Below are positions 7,756 to 34,427 of a stretch of DNA of 64,000 nucleotides, in pieces. The notes under the pieces are model-generated. The model saw only the letters and a list, made by a program, of their open reading frames with translations. It searched no databases and was not told where the DNA came from. How positions within the stretch are numbered: position 1 is the first letter of the stretch; each line of letters opens with the position of its first letter. The stretch is from assembly GCA_038209515.1 (NCBI GenBank), contig JBBQXQ010000003.1, positions 158 to 64,157 on the forward strand, read 5' to 3'. Both the position numbers and the translations under genes were made by a program. This stretch comes from Gemmatimonadales bacterium. GTDB taxonomy: Bacteria; Gemmatimonadota; Gemmatimonadetes; Gemmatimonadales; GWC2-71-9.

Positions 7756-7778
7756 TCGGGGCTTGACAAGAGAAAAAT

Positions 7779-7902
7779 GACGGAGAGGACGGAGAAGCCG
7801 GAGAGGTGATCGCAGCCAGGAATCCCTTGTCGCCTTTTCGCGAGTCTCCCCGCTCGCTCCTCTGACTTTTCCTCTCTCCGTCCTCTCCGCCTTCTCCGCC
7901 CC
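7779..7902 (+). repeat. Palindromic element, copy 1: a purine arm of 9-nt GRCGGAGAR units, a 64-nt spacer, and a complementary pyrimidine arm
   Basis: Arm A is GACGGAGAG GACGGAGAA GCCGGAGAG G at 7779-7806. Arm B is cctctctccgtcctctccgccttctccgcccc at 7871-7902. Positions 7874-7900 are the exact reverse complement of 28769-28795 (27 nt). Confidence 0.75.
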
Positions 7903-7913
7903 TTACCCTCAAC

Positions 7914-10545: not shown

Positions 10546-11871
10546 ATGCTTTCCGACCCGATCGTAGCTCTGGCCACACCTCCCGGGCGCGCCGCCCTCG
10601 CCGTCATCCGGCTCAGCGGCTCGGGGGCGTTCGACGTGGCCGCTCGGGTCATCACGGGGTTCCAGGCGCACCCGGCCCGGCGCGCCACTCTCGCCTCCTT
10701 CCATGAAGCCGGCGGCCAGCCGATCGATCGCGGGTTGTACACCACATTTCCCGGGCCGCACAGCTACACTGGCGAGGATCTGGTCGAGCTCTCCTGTCAC
10801 GGCGGACTCCTCGTTCCCGGACGGCTGCTGGCGGCCGTTCACGCCGCGGGAGCTCGGCCCGCCGCGCCCGGTGAATTCACCCGCCGGGCGGTGCTGAACG
10901 GCAAGCTCGATCTGGTGCAGGCGGAGGCAGTGGGGGACCTGATTGATGCGACGGCCCCAGCCCAGGCGCATGCGGCGCTCAACCAGCTCGAGGGCGGGCT
11001 CTCGCGCCGTCTCGCGGCCCTGCGCGAGTCGCTGATCGAGATCCAGGCGCTCCTCAGCTACGACATCGATTTCCCCGACGAAGACGACGGCCCAGTGGCG
11101 CCCGCGCGCATTGCCGGTCAGATCGAATCTGCCGCTGCCCAGATCCGCCGACTGGTGGCGACCGCGCCTTCGGCCGAGCGGCTGCGGGAGGGGGCGTTGA
11201 TGGTGTTCGCCGGCCGGCCCAATGCCGGGAAATCCTCCCTCTTCAACGCGCTCCTCGGCAGCGAACGGGCCCTCGTGACCGAGATTCCGGGAACCACGCG
11301 TGACGCCATCGAGGCCCACACCGATTTCCTGGGGTGGCCGGTGCGCCTGGCCGACACGGCCGGACTGTGGAATGCACCAGGGAAGATCGACCGAATGGGT
11401 GTCGAGGTGAGCCGCCGCTATCTGGCGGCGGCCGATCTAGTGCTGCTCTGCGTGGAGGCTGGACGTGAAGTGGGCGACGACGAAGACGCGATCGCTGGGG
11501 CCCGCCCCAGCCTGCTGGTGCGGACGAAGGCGGATCTGGCACCCGAAGCAGGCCTGGGGATTGCCGTTTCAGCGCTCACGGGCGAAGGGCTCGGCGTGCT
11601 TCGCCGGGCCGCGGCGGAACGGGTGTTCGCCGATCGAATAAACCTGGCCGACTTGGAGCCGGGGCTAACCCGTGAGCGGCACCGGACCACGCTAAGCCGT
11701 GCGCTGGTCGCACTCGGGGGAGCGGTTCCTCACCTCGGCAGCGACGGGGACGCGGTGCTGGCCGCCCACCACGTTCGGCAGGCCGCCGCCGCGCTCGAAG
11801 AGCTCCTCGGTTTCATTGATATCGAAGAGGTGCTGGATCGGGTGTTCGGGAGTTTCTGCGTGGGGAAGTGA
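10546..11871 (+). CDS. mnmE: tRNA modification GTPase MnmE
   Basis: It has the N-terminal DPIVALATPPG, the G-domain motifs GRPNAGKSSLFNAL and DTAGL, and the C-terminal tetrapeptide CVGK. Confidence 0.92.
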   Translation: MLSDPIVALATPPGRAALAVIRLSGSGAFDVAARVITGFQAHPARRATLASFHEAGGQPIDRGLYTTFPGPHSYTGEDLVELSCHGGLLVPGRLLAAVHAAGARPAAPGEFTRRAVLNGKLDLVQAEAVGDLIDATAPAQAHAALNQLEGGLSRRLAALRESLIEIQALLSYDIDFPDEDDGPVAPARIAGQIESAAAQIRRLVATAPSAERLREGALMVFAGRPNAGKSSLFNALLGSERALVTEIPGTTRDAIEAHTDFLGWPVRLADTAGLWNAPGKIDRMGVEVSRRYLAAADLVLLCVEAGREVGDDEDAIAGARPSLLVRTKADLAPEAGLGIAVSALTGEGLGVLRRAAAERVFADRINLADLEPGLTRERHRTTLSRALVALGGAVPHLGSDGDAVLAAHHVRQAAAALEELLGFIDIEEVLDRVFGSFCVGK

Positions 11872-16561: not shown

Positions 16562-19221
16562 TTCCGTTCGCCCGCGCGGCGCTTGAAGTCCGCCAGCCGG
16601 TTCAACGCCTCCAACGGGGTGAGCGTGTTCACGTCGAGCAGCTTGAGCTCCTCGACCATTGGATCGGGCTCATGCGGATCACGGAACAACGCCAGCTGGC
16701 CCGGGTCGCGCGACGCAGTCGGCGGTGGCCCCGGAACCATACGATGTTCGCCCTCGAGCGTGGCCAGGATCTCCCGCGCCCGGGCGACCACCTGGCTCGG
16801 AAGGCCGGCCAACTGGCCGACATGAATGCCGTAAGACCGATCGGTGCCCCCGGGCTCGAGCCGGTGCAGGAAGACAACCGTATCTCCCGCTTCCTGAACC
16901 GCCACATTGTAGTTCCGCGCGTGCTGAAGCCGCTCGGGCAATTGCATGAGCTCGTGATAGTGAGTGGCGAACATGGTCTTGCATCCGACTCGATCGTGCA
17001 GGTGCTCGGTCACGGCCCAGGCGATCGCCACGCCATCGTAGGTCGAGGTGCCGCGGCCTATCTCATCGAGGAGTACGAGGCTCCTCGCTGTCGCGTTGTG
17101 CAGAATGGCGCTCGTTTCGCTCATCTCCACCATGAAGGTGGACTGCCCCTGTGCCAGGTTGTCGCTCGCCCCCACCCGGGTAAAGAGCCGGTCCACCGCG
17201 CCGATCGACGCCTCGGCCGCCGGCACGAAGGACCCCATCTGGGCGAGAACCACACAGACGCCGATCTGCCGGAGTATGGTGGATTTCCCCGCCATATTCG
17301 GGCCAGTCACCAGAGCCACCCGCTCCGCCTCGGTGAACCGGGCATCATTGGGAATGAATGACTCGCGGGCCATCATCCGCTCGATCACCGGATGCCGGCT
17401 TTCGCGAAGGGTCAGAGCGAACGCGTCCGTCACCTGGGGCCGTACATAACGGCCCACCACCGCCCGCTCGGCCAGGCCCGCCCAGACATCGAGCCGGGCG
17501 AGAACCCGGGCAGTTTGCTGGATCCGCCCGATGGCCTGGCCGATCACCGCGCGAACTGCACCGAAGAGTTCCGCCTCCCGGGTGCCGATCCCCTCCTCCG
17601 CGCTGAGCACCCGGGACTCATAGTCCTTGAGCTCGGGAGTGACATAGCGTTCGGCTGTAGCGAGGGTTTGACGCCGTTCATAGTTCGCAGGAACCCGATC
17701 GGCGTGGGTGTGGGTCACCTCCAGGTAATACCCGAAGACCTTGTTGAATCCGACCTTGAGCGAGGGAATGCCGCTTCGTTCCCGCTCCCGCTGTTGCAGC
17801 GACGCGATGTACTGACGCCCTCCATCGCGGAGGGATCTCAGCTCGTCGAGCTCCGAGTCGTAGCCGGAACGGATGACCCCACCGTCGGCCAGGGTGGCCG
17901 GAAGCCGGTCCGCGAGAGCCACCGAAAGATGGGAGCTCAGGTCGGCAAGGAGGTCCAGCTCGTCGGCGGCCTCGGCCAGGGCGCCACTATGGCCGCCGCC
18001 CGGAAGGGCGGAGCCGGCGAGAGCCGCGAGCGCTCCGGCAACGTCGGGGAGCCGCTGAAACGAATCGCGCAGCGAGCCAAGCTCCCGGGGAGTGGCGCGG
18101 CCCGCGGCGGCTCGGCCGGCCAGCCGCTCGAGATCACGAACGCCATCGAGCCCCTCCCGGAGCCGGCCCCGACCCCGCGCGTCGTCCACCATCACCTCGA
18201 CCGCGTCGAGCCGCGCATTGATCGCGGCCGGATCACGGAGGGGGGAGAGCAGCCACTGACGCAGAAGACGACCACCCATGGGGGTCACCGTAGCGTCGAT
18301 TGTCTCGAGCAGGGTGCAGCCGCGCGCACCCGCACGGAGTGGCTCGATCAGCTCGAGATTTCGCCGGGTCATCTCATCGACCCAGAGAAACCCGTCACTG
18401 CGCCGAACGATCGGCCGAGTGAGATGGGGCAGCCCGCCGGGCTGGAGCTCGCCGAGATAGCGGAGCAACGCGCCGGCTGCGCCGATCGCAGGGTCATCCT
18501 CCGAGGCCAGGCCGAGGCCGTCCAGGGAAGCGAGGCCGAATCTCCGAGCCACCTCTTCGTGGGCCAGCCCGGGGTCGAATTCCCACTGCTCACGACGGGT
18601 CGTGAGCGGCGGGGCGGCGGGGTGGGTGCCCTCCGGGCGGGTGGGCAGCGGGGCAGTGTCATCGTTTGCGATCACGATCTCTGCGGGACCGAGCCGCGAG
18701 AGAGCCTCTTCCAGACCATCCTGGGAAACACTCTCGAGTACGAACTCGCCCGTGCTTAGATCAACGCATGCGATCCCGATCACGTTTTCTGACTCCCCCG
18801 CGGCCTCGCTGCCCCGCTGAATCGCCACCATCCAGTTGTTGCGGCTTCCGGCGACCCACCCGTCCTGCATCAGGGCCCCGGGTGTGAGTGTTTCGACCAC
18901 CTCTCGGCGCACCAGCCCCCGGGCTAGCTTGGGGTCTTCCACCTGCTCACAGATGGCGACCCGGTGGCCGGCGCCAACCAGCTGGCGCAGATACTCGGCC
19001 GCCGCTTTCACCGGCACGCCGGCGAGTGGCGCGCCGTCGCCCCGCGAGGTCAGCGTGATGTCGAGAATCCGGGCGGCGAGCTCCGCGTCTTCGTGGAACA
19101 TCTCGTAGAAGTCGCCGACCCGGTAGAAGAGGATCGCGTCAGGATGCAGCGCCTTCATCTCCCGCCAGTGCTTGAGCATCGGCGGGGTTGGCGCAGCGCT
19201 GTCGCGGCTGGTGAGGGACAT
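16558..19221 (-). CDS. mutS: DNA mismatch repair protein MutS
   Basis: The 887-aa protein has the N-terminal mismatch-binding motif FYRVGDFYEMF, Walker A GPNMAGKST and DEIGRGTSTYDG. Confidence 0.95.
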   Translation of the reverse strand: MSLTSRDSAAPTPPMLKHWREMKALHPDAILFYRVGDFYEMFHEDAELAARILDITLTSRGDGAPLAGVPVKAAAEYLRQLVGAGHRVAICEQVEDPKLARGLVRREVVETLTPGALMQDGWVAGSRNNWMVAIQRGSEAAGESENVIGIACVDLSTGEFVLESVSQDGLEEALSRLGPAEIVIANDDTAPLPTRPEGTHPAAPPLTTRREQWEFDPGLAHEEVARRFGLASLDGLGLASEDDPAIGAAGALLRYLGELQPGGLPHLTRPIVRRSDGFLWVDEMTRRNLELIEPLRAGARGCTLLETIDATVTPMGGRLLRQWLLSPLRDPAAINARLDAVEVMVDDARGRGRLREGLDGVRDLERLAGRAAAGRATPRELGSLRDSFQRLPDVAGALAALAGSALPGGGHSGALAEAADELDLLADLSSHLSVALADRLPATLADGGVIRSGYDSELDELRSLRDGGRQYIASLQQRERERSGIPSLKVGFNKVFGYYLEVTHTHADRVPANYERRQTLATAERYVTPELKDYESRVLSAEEGIGTREAELFGAVRAVIGQAIGRIQQTARVLARLDVWAGLAERAVVGRYVRPQVTDAFALTLRESRHPVIERMMARESFIPNDARFTEAERVALVTGPNMAGKSTILRQIGVCVVLAQMGSFVPAAEASIGAVDRLFTRVGASDNLAQGQSTFMVEMSETSAILHNATARSLVLLDEIGRGTSTYDGVAIAWAVTEHLHDRVGCKTMFATHYHELMQLPERLQHARNYNVAVQEAGDTVVFLHRLEPGGTDRSYGIHVGQLAGLPSQVVARAREILATLEGEHRMVPGPPPTASRDPGQLALFRDPHEPDPMVEELKLLDVNTLTPLEALNRLADFKRRAGERK

Positions 19222-27829: not shown

Positions 27830-28855
27830 CTAGGGCTCCGCGACCACGAATGGGCTGCCCCCGAGCTTGGCCTTGATCTTCGGTACCGCGGCCAGTGCCT
27901 CCGCCCGGCTCGCATAGTTCCCCACCCGCACTTTATAGAGTCCAGCATCGGCGACGGTCACCGCCGCGAGCCCCCGTGCGCTGAGTTTCCTGGCAATGGC
28001 GTCGGCCGCCGCCGCAGTGTGTACCGCGGTGACCTGAACCCGGAAGCGCCCGCCCGATGGCAGCGTCGGGGCCGGCCGTGCCGTTGGCGTTCGGCTCGTG
28101 GTGTCCGGCCGAGTCGGTGCCGGCCTGGGGCCCGCAGGGGGGTTGGGGGGCAGCGTCGGGGTCACCGGCGAAATGCTGTCCGCGCGGCGCGCGAATATGG
28201 TGTCTCGCGGAGCGCTGGCCACGGTCGTAGGCGAGTCCGCCGAAGCCCGCGGGGCCGAATCGATCGCCAACTGGGGGCAGCGCTGGTTCAGGTAGCCGAG
28301 CTGGTTCTCCAACTCGACGTTGCCTCGCGAGGCGGCCAGACCGTCCGCGAGCCAACGACACGCCAGCGCCGGGTTCTTCTGATCGAAGTAAGTGCGCGCA
28401 GCCCAGTAAGACGTCTGGGGCAGGAGCGTGCTGCCCGGGTAGTCGCGCCGGAGTCGCTCCAGGTTGCGGGCCGCTCCATCCAGATTGCCACTGGCGTAGT
28501 CGAGCTGCACCAGCCGGAGGAGCGCGTCGTCGGCCCAGCTGCTGGAGGAGTGCTCGACCGCGACGCGCTGAAGCTGGCGGCGCATCCCGGCGGCATCGGT
28601 GGCCACCATGGCCTGAGTGTAGAGGATCTGGGGGTACAGCGTATCGCTTGGAGGAGTGGTCGCCAGCAGTCGCTGCACCTTGATCCGGGCCGAGTCGCCC
28701 TGGCCTTGCTGGGCATCGCGGATGACGTCGACCAGACGCGGGTCGGTCTGGGCGGAGAGGACGGAGAAGGCGGAGAAGGCGGAGAGGACGGAGAGGATAT
28801 ACACAGCCCGTCCCGCGAGCCGACGCGCCAGGTTGGAGTTGGGTCGCTGGATCAT
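27830..28855 (-). CDS. TPR plus SPOR-domain protein (C-terminal portion of the uninterrupted 699-codon ORF; possible internal start at ATG 28855)
   Basis: It begins MIQRPNSNLARRLAGRAVYILSVLSAFSAFSVLSAQT (signal or TM-like), continues with TPR-like helices and a Pro/Thr-rich linker, and ends in a SPOR-type segment FRVQVTAV...YKVRVGNYASRAEA. GGAGAGGG precedes the ATG. Confidence 0.7.
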   Translation of the reverse strand: MIQRPNSNLARRLAGRAVYILSVLSAFSAFSVLSAQTDPRLVDVIRDAQQGQGDSARIKVQRLLATTPPSDTLYPQILYTQAMVATDAAGMRRQLQRVAVEHSSSSWADDALLRLVQLDYASGNLDGAARNLERLRRDYPGSTLLPQTSYWAARTYFDQKNPALACRWLADGLAASRGNVELENQLGYLNQRCPQLAIDSAPRASADSPTTVASAPRDTIFARRADSISPVTPTLPPNPPAGPRPAPTRPDTTSRTPTARPAPTLPSGGRFRVQVTAVHTAAAADAIARKLSARGLAAVTVADAGLYKVRVGNYASRAEALAAVPKIKAKLGGSPFVVAEP

Positions 28856-28889
28856 TCCGCCCTCTCCGTCATCTCCGCCCTCTCCGCCC
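28751..28889 (-). repeat. Palindromic element, copy 2 (inverted relative to copy 1), lying entirely inside an open reading frame
   Basis: The plus strand reads GGCGGAGAG GACGGAGAA GGCGGAGAA GGCGGAGAG GACGGAGAG GA at 28751-28797. A 59-nt spacer follows. The complementary arm ccgccctctccgtcatctccgccctctccgccc lies at 28857-28889. Confidence 0.75.
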
Positions 28890-29929
28890 TTCATGATTGT
28901 CACCATCAGAACCAAGTCCGTGAGGAGCCCCCGCTCATCCGATACCGTAGTGGTCTTGAGCGACTCATCGGTAGTGCGGGCGGCTCGGAGCGCGGCCCGG
29001 ATGCGGGAGACCGGCCATTGTGGCGCCCACCGGGCCCAACTCGATGCCTCCTCCCTGTATCCCAGGAGACCGTACGGACGGTTCTGGAGCAGGACCTTGA
29101 ACACTGCATCCTCCAGAGTGCGTCCACGAAGGCCCTTGTCGTACAGCGTGCGGGCAATGCCGAGGCCGACGAGGGCCGTGCCGAGCTGCGTCACCAGCCT
29201 GACCCCCGACACACCCGGCTGGCCCAGCACCCGCAACAGAACGGCGATGGCGCGGCCAGTCTCTCCGTTCAACACGGCCTCACGCCAGTCCCACTGGGTC
29301 TCGCCGTGCCGGATCCCGACCAGCTCGCCGACTCGCTCCGGAGTAAGCGTCTCGCCCGAGGGCAGTGAGGCAAGCTTGGCGAGCTCCGATTGGAGCGCAC
29401 CGAGATCGGACCCAACGCACCGTACCAGATGGCGCACCGCCTCGGGGTCCAGCGTCAGGCCGAGCTGGTCCGCCCGTCGCAATGCCCATTTCTCCGCCCG
29501 CTCGGCAGGGAGGGGGTCGAACTTCACGGTGTACGCGCCGCGGGACAGTTCCTTGTCCTCGGCCTCCTCTCCAGATCCCTGGACCAGGACCACGACCGTC
29601 TCCAAGCTGGGGCGCTCCAGATAGCGCAGGAACTCGGCTCTTCCCTTGGTCTTCCGCTTCCAGCCTTCCACGTCACGGAGCACGACGACCCGTCGCTCCG
29701 CCAGCATCGGCAGTGTGTTACAGAGGGAGTGGATCTCTTCCGGGTCGAGCTGGGCCGCCGATCGCTGATCGAAGTTGAAATCTCGCAGACCGGGATCGAG
29801 CGTCCGGTCGAGGATCATGCGGACTGCCTCGTCCTTGAGCTCATCCTCGTGTCCGTGCAAATAGTACACCGGCGCCACTTCGCCCTTGTTCAGGGATCGA
29901 AACAACGCATCCATCGAATGTGCGGGCAT
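28856..29929 (-). CDS. holA: DNA polymerase III delta subunit (N-terminal 358 codons of the 699-codon ORF; no stop codon of its own)
   Basis: It begins FRSLNKGEVAPVYYLHGHEDELKDEAV... and has the length and helical C-terminal pattern of HolA. The ORF continues in frame into the repeat-encoded KGGEGGDDGEGG. Confidence 0.72.

Positions 29930-34354: not shown

Positions 34355-34427
<73 letters not shown>

Follow-up and report, generated by a model that had tools for sequence, protein, structure and literature searches.

How does the gene for a clamp-loader subunit come to end in an envelope protein? The question is raised by a 64,000-nucleotide (nt) stretch of DNA from a Gemmatimonadales bacterium, referred to here as the window. 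On its minus strand, holA, the gene for the delta subunit of DNA polymerase III, continues in frame into a gene for an exported TPR/SPOR protein. The resulting open reading frame (ORF) runs for 699 codons without interruption (27830..29929), just as an earlier note on this DNA had described. In what follows, L numbers denote loci of relatives and P numbers denote database proteins. We conclude, with a probability of roughly 0.6, that this ORF is a read-through fusion of two ancestrally separate, translationally coupled genes, that its precursor is resolved by signal peptidase, by internal initiation or by both, and that the fusion is tolerated as a near-neutral state.

Architecture of the 699-codon reading frame

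The HolA part is a complete DNA polymerase III delta subunit with the three-domain clamp-loader fold. Residues 21-341 cover positions 1-314 of the 316 positions of the equivalog model TIGR01128, which scores the fused ORF at 157.5 bits (cut-off 80), and PF06144 matches as well, with 34.5 bits against 21. AlphaFold2 (AF2) returns a confident HolA fold over residues 1-347, for which the top Foldseek matches are the delta subunits 3zh9, 3glf_A, 8giy_A and 1jr3_D, at a probability of 1.00. The assignment of a complete subunit to codons 1 to about 345, made in the earlier note from the letters alone, is confirmed by these matches.

The downstream part is a SPOR domain protein by score and by fold. 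PF05036 matches residues 626-696 with 57.9 bits (gathering score 21), and the AF2 model shows the elements E-H-E-E-H-E over residues 629-697. TPR models match at about residues 466-536, within a region of TPR-like helices modelled at 399-548, and a disordered Pro-rich linker (554-626) leads to the SPOR domain. Pfam and AF2 agree on the succession of TPR, Pro-rich and SPOR segments that had been proposed for this protein. When the exported protein was used to search PDB sequences, the SPOR domain 1x60 was the sole match. Residues 348-393, which join the two parts, are modelled with low confidence, with a lone helix at 366-384 and a predicted local distance difference test score below 50 in the linker; the predicted template modelling score of the whole fusion is 0.48. 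The model indicates a fusion built from independent modules with low-confidence linkers between the domains.

The junction consists of an inverted repeat of 9-nt units that is translated from end to end (Table 1); a peptide spanning it reads, for example, ...GGMIQRPNSNLAR. The peptide encoded by the purine arm is predicted to be a flexible linker of acidic and Gly residues. This arm is as the earlier note described it, with one correction to the assignment of codons 346-358: codon 346 is the ATG at 28892-28894, K follows as codon 347, and codons 347-358 make up the G/E/D stretch. The ATG of codon 359 is indeed preceded by GGAGAGGG. The pyrimidine arm, also recognised correctly as the source of a signal-like segment, encodes the hydrophobic core and the c-region of a signal peptide with predicted cleavage at A393/Q394. 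A rule-based test delimits this segment as M359...RRLAGR, followed by AVYILSVLSAFSAFSVLSA and Q394; with its basic n-region, its uncharged hydrophobic core and small residues at positions -1 and -3, it is a putative Sec (type I) signal peptide. The mature protein would begin with the invariant N-terminus QTDPRL, and continues with TPR-like helical repeats, the Pro-rich disordered linker and the C-terminal SPOR domain.

Table 1. Positions of the features of the fused ORF and of a second hairpin in the window
Feature	Position	Strand	Remarks
holA proper, codons 1-345	28895..29929	-	complete delta subunit, without the ancestral '...SAEAA*' tail and stop
ATGA at codon 346, TGA in the +1 frame	28891..28894	-	three-frame view
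Purine arm, about four 9-nt units (GGCGGAGAG-like)	28856..28890	-	codons 347-358, read G-G-E-G-G-D-D-G-E-G-G
Shine-Dalgarno (SD)-like GGAGAGGG, last purine-arm unit	28860..28867	-	ends 4 nt before the ATG of codon 359
Codon 359 ATG, ancestral start of the downstream TPR/SPOR gene	28853..28855	-	homology to L100
Hairpin loop, native signal-peptide n-region (IQRPNSNLARRLAGRAVY), positively charged	28798..28852	-	
Pyrimidine arm, about five 9-nt units (CTCTCCGCC-like), read as ILSVLSAFSAFSVLSA	28750..28797	-	
Mature exported protein, 306 amino acids	27833..28750	-	Pfam SPOR and TPR matches, AF2
Sole in-frame stop of the 699-codon ORF	27830..27832	-	
Copy 1 hairpin	7765..7910		arms 7779-7806 and 7874-7901; same 9-nt unit, non-coding, fold z = -3.3

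Ancestral gene boundary and its changes across Gemmatimonadales

The earlier note had suggested comparing holA C-termini among relatives, and the stop codon is indeed present in split, repeat-free genomes. In split genomes holA ends with '...AEAA*' exactly 84 nt past a conserved anchor, and an ATG or GTG at +83 or +86 overlaps this stop as [AG]TGA or TGATG. The ancestral arrangement usually has no intergenic region, just the [AG]TGA overlap of stop and start. The holA tail contains GGAG or GAGG, most often as GGAGG, at a distance of 3-15 nt ahead of the downstream start in 69 of the 90 distinct split junctions. This comparison shows that the ancestral state consisted of two separate, translationally coupled genes. 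The downstream gene of split genomes begins with a canonical signal peptide of 21-23 amino acids (median 23) that ends in AxA/QTDPRL (the slash marks the cleavage site), as in MKRLLIAALAAGAALVGVAPAHA/QT. Position -1 is A, S or G in 121 of 123 junctions, position -3 is A, L or V in 116, and the AxA/QTDPRL site is conserved equally in fused and split genomes. Since signal peptide, start codon and coupling are all present in repeat-free split relatives, they predate any repeat.

The former boundary can be located in the window by comparison with L100, the split sister of the window's fused clade. Its holA ends with ...AEVA* (GCATGATAG), followed by a spacer of about 24 nt and by ATG ATC AGC CGG CCG (M-I-S-R-P); the homologous place in the window reads ATG ATC CAG CGA CCC (M359-I-Q-R-P). 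Because these two starts are homologous, codon 359 is the ancestral start of the downstream gene. Together with the next A, its ATG forms a relic of the [AG]TGA overlap (28852-28855). Where the holA tail, its stop and the spacer used to be, the window has the purine arm, whose last unit supplies the SD-like GGAGAGGG. L014 and L077, the next split relatives after L100, have a purine arm in the holA tail, followed by GTGTGA. We also considered the first ATGA, at codon 346, as the ancestral start; this assignment was dropped, as L100, L014, L077 and the fused relatives all place the homologous overlap at codon 359. An in-frame ATG or GTG followed by A is kept at the ancestral place in 23 of 30 fused junctions, with ATG and GTG interchanging there, and 56 of 114 fused proteins have a Met in this short segment, compared with 14% expected. 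L094 and P0112/P0113 contain no ATG, GTG or TTG ahead of the hydrophobic core, so that the exported protein of these lineages can come from the fusion only.

A protein search returned more than 100 full-length proteins that combine a delta subunit with a SPOR domain, at 58-92% identity, all of them from Gemmatimonadales metagenome bins or contigs. The assemblies come from JGI, ENA and NCBI, and most of the proteins are annotated merely as 'DNA polymerase III subunit delta'. Their alignment has a constant order: the HolA end (...LLTDLVL...), a stretch rich in Gly, Glu, Asp and Lys, a basic stretch, a repeat of (L/F)-S-(A/V) or L-P-V, and the motif AQTDPRL, which is invariant. Truncated C-terminal fragments among the database proteins (P0001-P0118) are annotated as 'cell division septation protein DedD'.

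Junction DNA was collected from 80 species-representative genomes and 80 metagenome contigs, and 133 Gemmatimonadales junctions could be delimited, of which 96 are split, 34 are fused in frame and 3 are frameshifted. The metagenome junctions divide into 20 fused and 46 split (66 in total), and 13 loci of GTDB species representatives are fused. A neighbour-joining tree of 109 taxa, calculated from HolA and the mature exported part, separates two clades: the first is repeat-free and entirely split save for the L013 lineage, and the second carries purine/pyrimidine tracts at the junction. Fused genomes all fall into the repeat-bearing clade except for the L013/L097 lineage. With a split state at the root and at least 11 fused/split changes required by parsimony, nearly all of them in the repeat-bearing clade, the fusion is not a single ancient event; it is polyphyletic and reversible. 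The reading as a genuine fusion, one of two offered in the earlier note, is right in that the fused ORF is widespread and persistent, but these repeated gains and losses speak against a single ancient adaptive fusion. L013, L097 and P0106-P0118 have fused ORFs without a repeat in an otherwise split clade (junction of 150 nt, compared with 146 nt in L037), which shows that rare fusion by a simple frame change is possible even without a hairpin.

The junction evolves much faster than its flanks. Fused L005 and split L018/L021 share 97% of the amino acids of HolA and 96% of those of the mature part; their junctions are 71-73% identical in nucleotide sequence and differ in length by 61 nt. For the window and L001 the corresponding identities are 93% (HolA), 98% (mature part) and 69% (junction). 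L081 and L084 encode proteins 92% identical to that of the window, and their junctions, 97% identical to that of the window, contain one 9-nt unit more. Transfer of a whole junction cassette into L005 was considered and rejected: BLAST comparison of junction DNA between lineages gave arm-to-arm matches only.

Two observations concern the genomes sampled. The three frameshifted junctions belong to long-read ('MFD') metagenome-assembled genomes (MAGs; L025, L027 and L028), with breaks at about 11030-11200 of each locus, inside the repeat or the signal-peptide core. The break in L025 falls in the hydrophobic core, and the frameshifts as given would destroy the downstream signal peptide. These frameshifts are probably homopolymer or repeat assembly errors, and the junction is probably a trap for long-read assemblies. 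In addition, L061 (DATJIR010000125.1, 4232 nt) is a typical split Gemmatimonadales holA/TPR-SPOR locus, with 59% identity, in a MAG labelled Verrucomicrobiia; its placement is likely due to binning contamination.

The junction hairpin and related repeats

Both arms of the junction repeat are composed of 9-nt units and are 86-93% complementary, and the junction RNA folds with -92.3 kcal/mol (z = -5.8). Among the junctions compared, median folding better than that of shuffled sequence is confined to those with a repeat. The basic unit is GGC GGA GAG in the purine arm and CTC TCC GCC, read L-S-A, in the pyrimidine arm. These units are stop-free in all six frames and, as had been pointed out, frame-neutral by virtue of their length. 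In the minimum free energy structure the positions of GGAGAGGG are paired and the AUG of codon 359 sits at the edge of the inner loop. A 17-mer motif occurs 12 times in the window, compared with 1.02 expected occurrences, and its matches are confined to the copies at 7779-7901 and 28751-28888, with the exception of one weak match. Three TGAs in the +1 frame mark the end of holA. The one contained in the ATGA at 28891-28894 had been noted before as a stop that a shift by one base would restore, and this is correct.

Position and sequence of the arms vary among lineages. The purine arm follows the downstream ATG in L015, L016, L024 and L075, whose proteins begin with MSGKDGKDGK...; it lies inside the holA tail in L014, L017 and L019, where it is read as AEKTEK or RTERTEK before the [AG]TGA overlap; and in the fused genomes it encodes GGE, GDD or DGK and continues in frame into the old start codon. 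Unit types differ by lineage (GGCGGAGAG, GACGGGAAG, GGCGGAAAG) and match between the two arms of one genome, so that at the protein level GGE is paired with LSA and DGK with LPV. Arms form more stable duplexes with their own partners (mean -41.0 kcal/mol) than with arms from other genomes (-36.4 kcal/mol), a difference reached by 0 of 10,000 permutations in a comparison made without phylogenetic correction. The hairpin arms co-evolve. The Pro-rich (L-P-V)n cores suggest that arm sequence may be set by nucleotide complementarity and not by protein optimality. Complementarity may be kept by selection on RNA or DNA structure or by a mutational process, for which intrastrand template switching is one candidate.

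The region 28500-29100 contains no terminator-like site, with no T-run after the pyrimidine arm, and no internal promoter was found in the junction. A scan of the whole window with Rfam 15 at the gathering threshold gave nothing at either hairpin; its sole matches were a class A RNase P RNA (2362-2745, 272 bits) and one tRNA (34355-34427).

Hairpins of the same type occur at other sites. Copy 1 of the window lies in the middle of the divergent dnaA-rpmH spacer and adjoins a TTGACA hexamer at about 7769-7774; when the two copies are aligned, only the arms match and the loops are unrelated. A second conserved site is a MutS-like ORF of about 884 amino acids (L019 13682-13878, L031 14206-14407, L075 21910-22113; unit GCGGGGAAG in all three). 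Here the purine arm encodes RGSGAAGQRGS or GEAGKRGSGE, the pyrimidine arm encodes APLPRCPA or SPLPRFPASP, and the arms flank about 120 nt of conserved native coding sequence (...AAVDLSTGEF...). These inserts are missing from genomes of the repeat-free clade, and in the window the corresponding arms (18635-18657 and 18792-18814) are degenerate, with 74% over 23 nt. Across 1.23 Mb, comprising all loci and the window, 34 of 34 purine/pyrimidine-tract hairpins have the purine arm first (5'-Pu...Py-3'), on either strand, and none is pyrimidine-first; about 14 of the 34 lie outside the holA junction. Intergenic hairpins of like architecture were found in L054 (7478-7622), L055 (7257-7390), L058 (6998-7145), L050 (17688-17773), L017 (8145-8230) and L041 (886-1059). 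The unit of the L041 hairpin equals the GACGGAGAG-like unit of the window; other intergenic hairpins have different units that are rich in A (GTGAAAAG, AAGTGAGAAGT, GGGAAGGAG), and the loops of some are very short.

Origin of the fusion and comparison with known systems

The history that best accounts for these observations begins in one subclade, whose junction acquired a hairpin with the (L-S-A)n coding sequence of the signal-peptide core as its 3' arm and a complementary purine repeat as its 5' arm. These arms change in steps of 9 nt and are stop-free in every frame, which leaves the native TGA alone to keep the genes apart; any indel that alters the frame within the holA tail, which is short and dispensable, merges the ORFs. 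This merger took place in the window's lineage after its separation from L100-like relatives and independently in several other lineages, with reversions as well. In-frame stop, terminator, promoter and conserved slippery site are all absent from the junction, so ribosomes that have initiated at holA must read through. They would translate the hairpin and produce a precursor composed of HolA, the Gly/acidic linker, the signal peptide and the TPR/SPOR protein. With its basic residues on the N-terminal side, the hydrophobic segment is expected to insert N-in/C-out: it may act as an internal signal or signal-anchor with the basic residues in the cytoplasm, and the C-terminal part would be exported. 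Cleavage at AxA/QTDPRL by signal peptidase I, as predicted from the motif, would yield the mature protein that split genomes also produce, and about 50 residues would stay attached to HolA as a tail embedded in the membrane at least transiently. Initiation at ATG359 probably contributes; the SD sequence is locked in the stem and would be exposed only once upstream ribosomes melt this stem. That the states flip often, that cleavage site and start codon have been kept, and that complementarity dictates the linker all argue for a fusion that is tolerated (near-neutral) and not selected for.

Several points weigh against this explanation. We infer export, cleavage and the fate of HolA from sequence and models. 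Bacterial Sec substrates do not usually carry a folded cytoplasmic domain, here of 345 residues, in front of an internal signal, and position -3 in the window is Leu, acceptable for signal peptidase and not ideal. HolA that stayed tethered to the membrane might be expected to do harm; the survival of fused clades down to about 74% identity could instead mean that the fusion is useful. The tree was calculated by neighbour joining from two proteins, and recombination at the junction could inflate the number of independent events. The contrast in junction folding between repeat-bearing (median z -2.8, n = 46) and repeat-free loci (+0.4, n = 77) was obtained with shuffles that preserve mononucleotide content only.

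We can practically dismiss an assembly or sequencing indel that conceals a stop after holA in the window genome. Repeats are error-prone and three long-read MAGs are frameshifted in this very junction, but the same in-frame arrangement recurs in dozens of independent short-read assemblies, including L081 and L084, which are one clean 9-nt unit apart from the window. The fused ORF is real. The second reading of the earlier note, in which a repeat element replaced the holA stop and intergenic region and now supplies SD, start and signal peptide, comes closest to the evidence here as far as the purine arm and GGAGAGGG are concerned. Start codon and signal peptide both go back to the ancestral gene, with only the sequence of the hydrophobic core turned into a pyrimidine arm; the overlapping genes usually had no intergenic region to replace; and there is no discrete insertion, since the loop is native and the arms evolve in place. 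The corresponding insertion of a mobile palindromic element, similar to a miniature inverted-repeat transposable element (MITE) or a Rickettsia palindromic element (RPE), could explain why two copies with the same 9-nt unit, one of them intergenic, occur in 64 kb, why similar hairpins occur at other loci of related genomes, and would have a precedent in the in-frame palindromic elements known in Rickettsia (PMC10969869). We nevertheless regard it as distinctly unlikely: the copies have nothing but arms in common, the loops at holA and at the MutS-like ORF are native conserved coding sequence, unit sequence is specific to lineage and locus, the position of the arms relative to the stop/start overlap differs by lineage, and a start codon and functional signal peptide that are older than the repeat cannot have been brought by it. 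The conserved full-length copies, conserved termini and target-site duplications that mark MITE- or RPE-like elements were not seen.

Programmed recoding would let most ribosomes shift frame at the hairpin and stop at an out-of-frame TGA, which yields HolA of normal length. A very stable hairpin does begin directly after the end of holA, where the +1-frame TGAs lie, a -1-frame TGA is found inside the purine arm, SD-like motifs fill this arm, and an in-frame A AAG GGC is present in 7 of 30 fused junctions. However, this sequence is limited to one clade, and the window and 22 other fused junctions contain no X XXY YYZ heptamer. With no heptamer conserved among orthologs, the junction lacks a programmed -1 site of the dnaX type; it also lacks what could drive a +1 shift, a stop or rare codon in frame. 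Under this codon usage, TGAs of the form xTG Axx outside the frame are expected to be frequent, and the hairpin also occurs in split genomes, where recoding is unneeded. We consider this mechanism very improbable. The fusion could instead be adaptive, with an uncleaved signal-anchor that tethers HolA to the inner membrane and places the TPR/SPOR part in the periplasm, coupling replisome and clamp loader to septal peptidoglycan. The fused state has lasted through considerable divergence (74-92% identity in the window's clade, and a second fused clade with L006-L012, L086-L091 and L099), the basic residues before the helix fit a cytoplasmic side, and some lineages have no internal start. The C-terminus of delta lies on the clamp-loader collar, where tau also carries an extension, and a C-terminal tail should be sterically tolerated. 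This proposal is opposed by the at least 11 gains and losses, with fused and split states among near-identical relatives, by the equal conservation of the AxA/Q motif and mature N-terminus in both states, by the retained downstream start, by a linker that follows complementarity to the other arm and not protein-level conservation, and by the lack of contact between the two parts in the AF2 model; we judge it quite unlikely. A bolder version, which we would still call unlikely, holds that many soil Gemmatimonadales make the essential delta subunit only as a membrane-inserted precursor, joined by a signal-anchor to a periplasmic peptidoglycan-binding protein, so that some of the clamp loaders would be held at the envelope or septum by a physical link. 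Its recurrent origin would be due to an undescribed kind of self-complementary hairpin, built of tandem 9-mers, always with the purine arm first and stop-free in six frames, that expands in situ around native coding sequence and reshapes the boundaries of genes.

The read-through fusion has consequences for annotation, since ORFs of about 690 residues called 'DNA polymerase III subunit delta' hide an exported SPOR/TPR envelope protein and make HolA lengths look anomalous. For gene evolution, the locus offers a clean natural series from stop/start overlap to fusion and back, with its at least 11 flips. As for cell biology, these bacteria either resolve a fusion of an essential cytoplasmic replication factor with a Sec substrate, using signal peptidase together with initiation inside the ORF, or live with a clamp-loader subunit tethered to the membrane, and neither is textbook knowledge. 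The hairpin itself may represent an unrecognised class of repeats in this phylum, with co-evolving 9-nt arms of which one encodes a signal-peptide core, including the odd (L-P-V)n. A literature search on holA-SPOR fusions and on inverted tandem repeats in Gemmatimonadetes found nothing relevant. The locus would gain further interest if HolA were membrane-tethered or if purine-first tandem-repeat hairpins formed a genome-wide class.

Comparison with known systems places the parts of this arrangement. The ancestral holA/TPR-SPOR junction is exactly like those of coupled overlapping genes (ATGA/GTGA), in which the stop overlaps the start and the SD sequence lies in the last codons of the upstream gene. 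In the window, by contrast, a shift of the upstream frame has turned the overlap motif into an in-frame Met codon and the two ORFs into one. The Bradyrhizobium fbcH precursor of cytochromes b and c1 is a bacterial case of one gene that yields two proteins through an internal signal peptide. The core-E1 junction of hepatitis C virus is shown experimentally to be resolved by signal peptidase and then by signal-peptide peptidase (PMC5402940). The order of cytoplasmic protein, signal peptide and exported protein is the same here, as are the proposed resolution and an upstream protein that stays anchored by the signal peptide. The viral case is an experimentally proven eukaryotic polyprotein, whereas the present one is bacterial, accidental and recurrent, with a cleavage that we propose from the motif. 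RPEs are hairpin repeats tolerated in frame within ORFs, and like the repeats described here they add peptide segments and can alter gene ends (PMC10969869). An RPE is a discrete element of about 150 bp in which the full-length sequence and the encoded peptide are conserved; the holA hairpin, by contrast, consists of arms only, tandem 9-mers around native sequence that vary by lineage and locus.

The exported protein shares a C-terminal SPOR domain, a Pro-rich linker and TPR-like repeats with the SPOR proteins DedD, DamX, FtsN and RlpA and with the periplasmic TPR proteins CpoB/YbgF and BamD. Its NCBIfam matches to the RlpA SPOR region, YbgF and BamD are weak and far below the cut-offs; with 27.6 bits for TIGR02795 (cut-off 90.1) and 24.6 bits for TIGR03302 (cut-off 81.4), it was rejected as CpoB/YbgF and as BamD. 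None of these E. coli proteins combines TPR, SPOR and a cleavable signal peptide. In E. coli, dnaX produces tau and gamma by programmed frameshifting with a stem-loop. The window's locus likewise pairs a clamp-loader gene with a stable hairpin in the mRNA and has stops in other frames close by, but it has no conserved slippery site, and its hairpin is present also where the genes are separate. The fusion described here combines three known themes, namely overlap-coupled genes, a polyprotein with an internal signal peptide, and hairpin repeats read in frame, and is a strict member of none of these classes.

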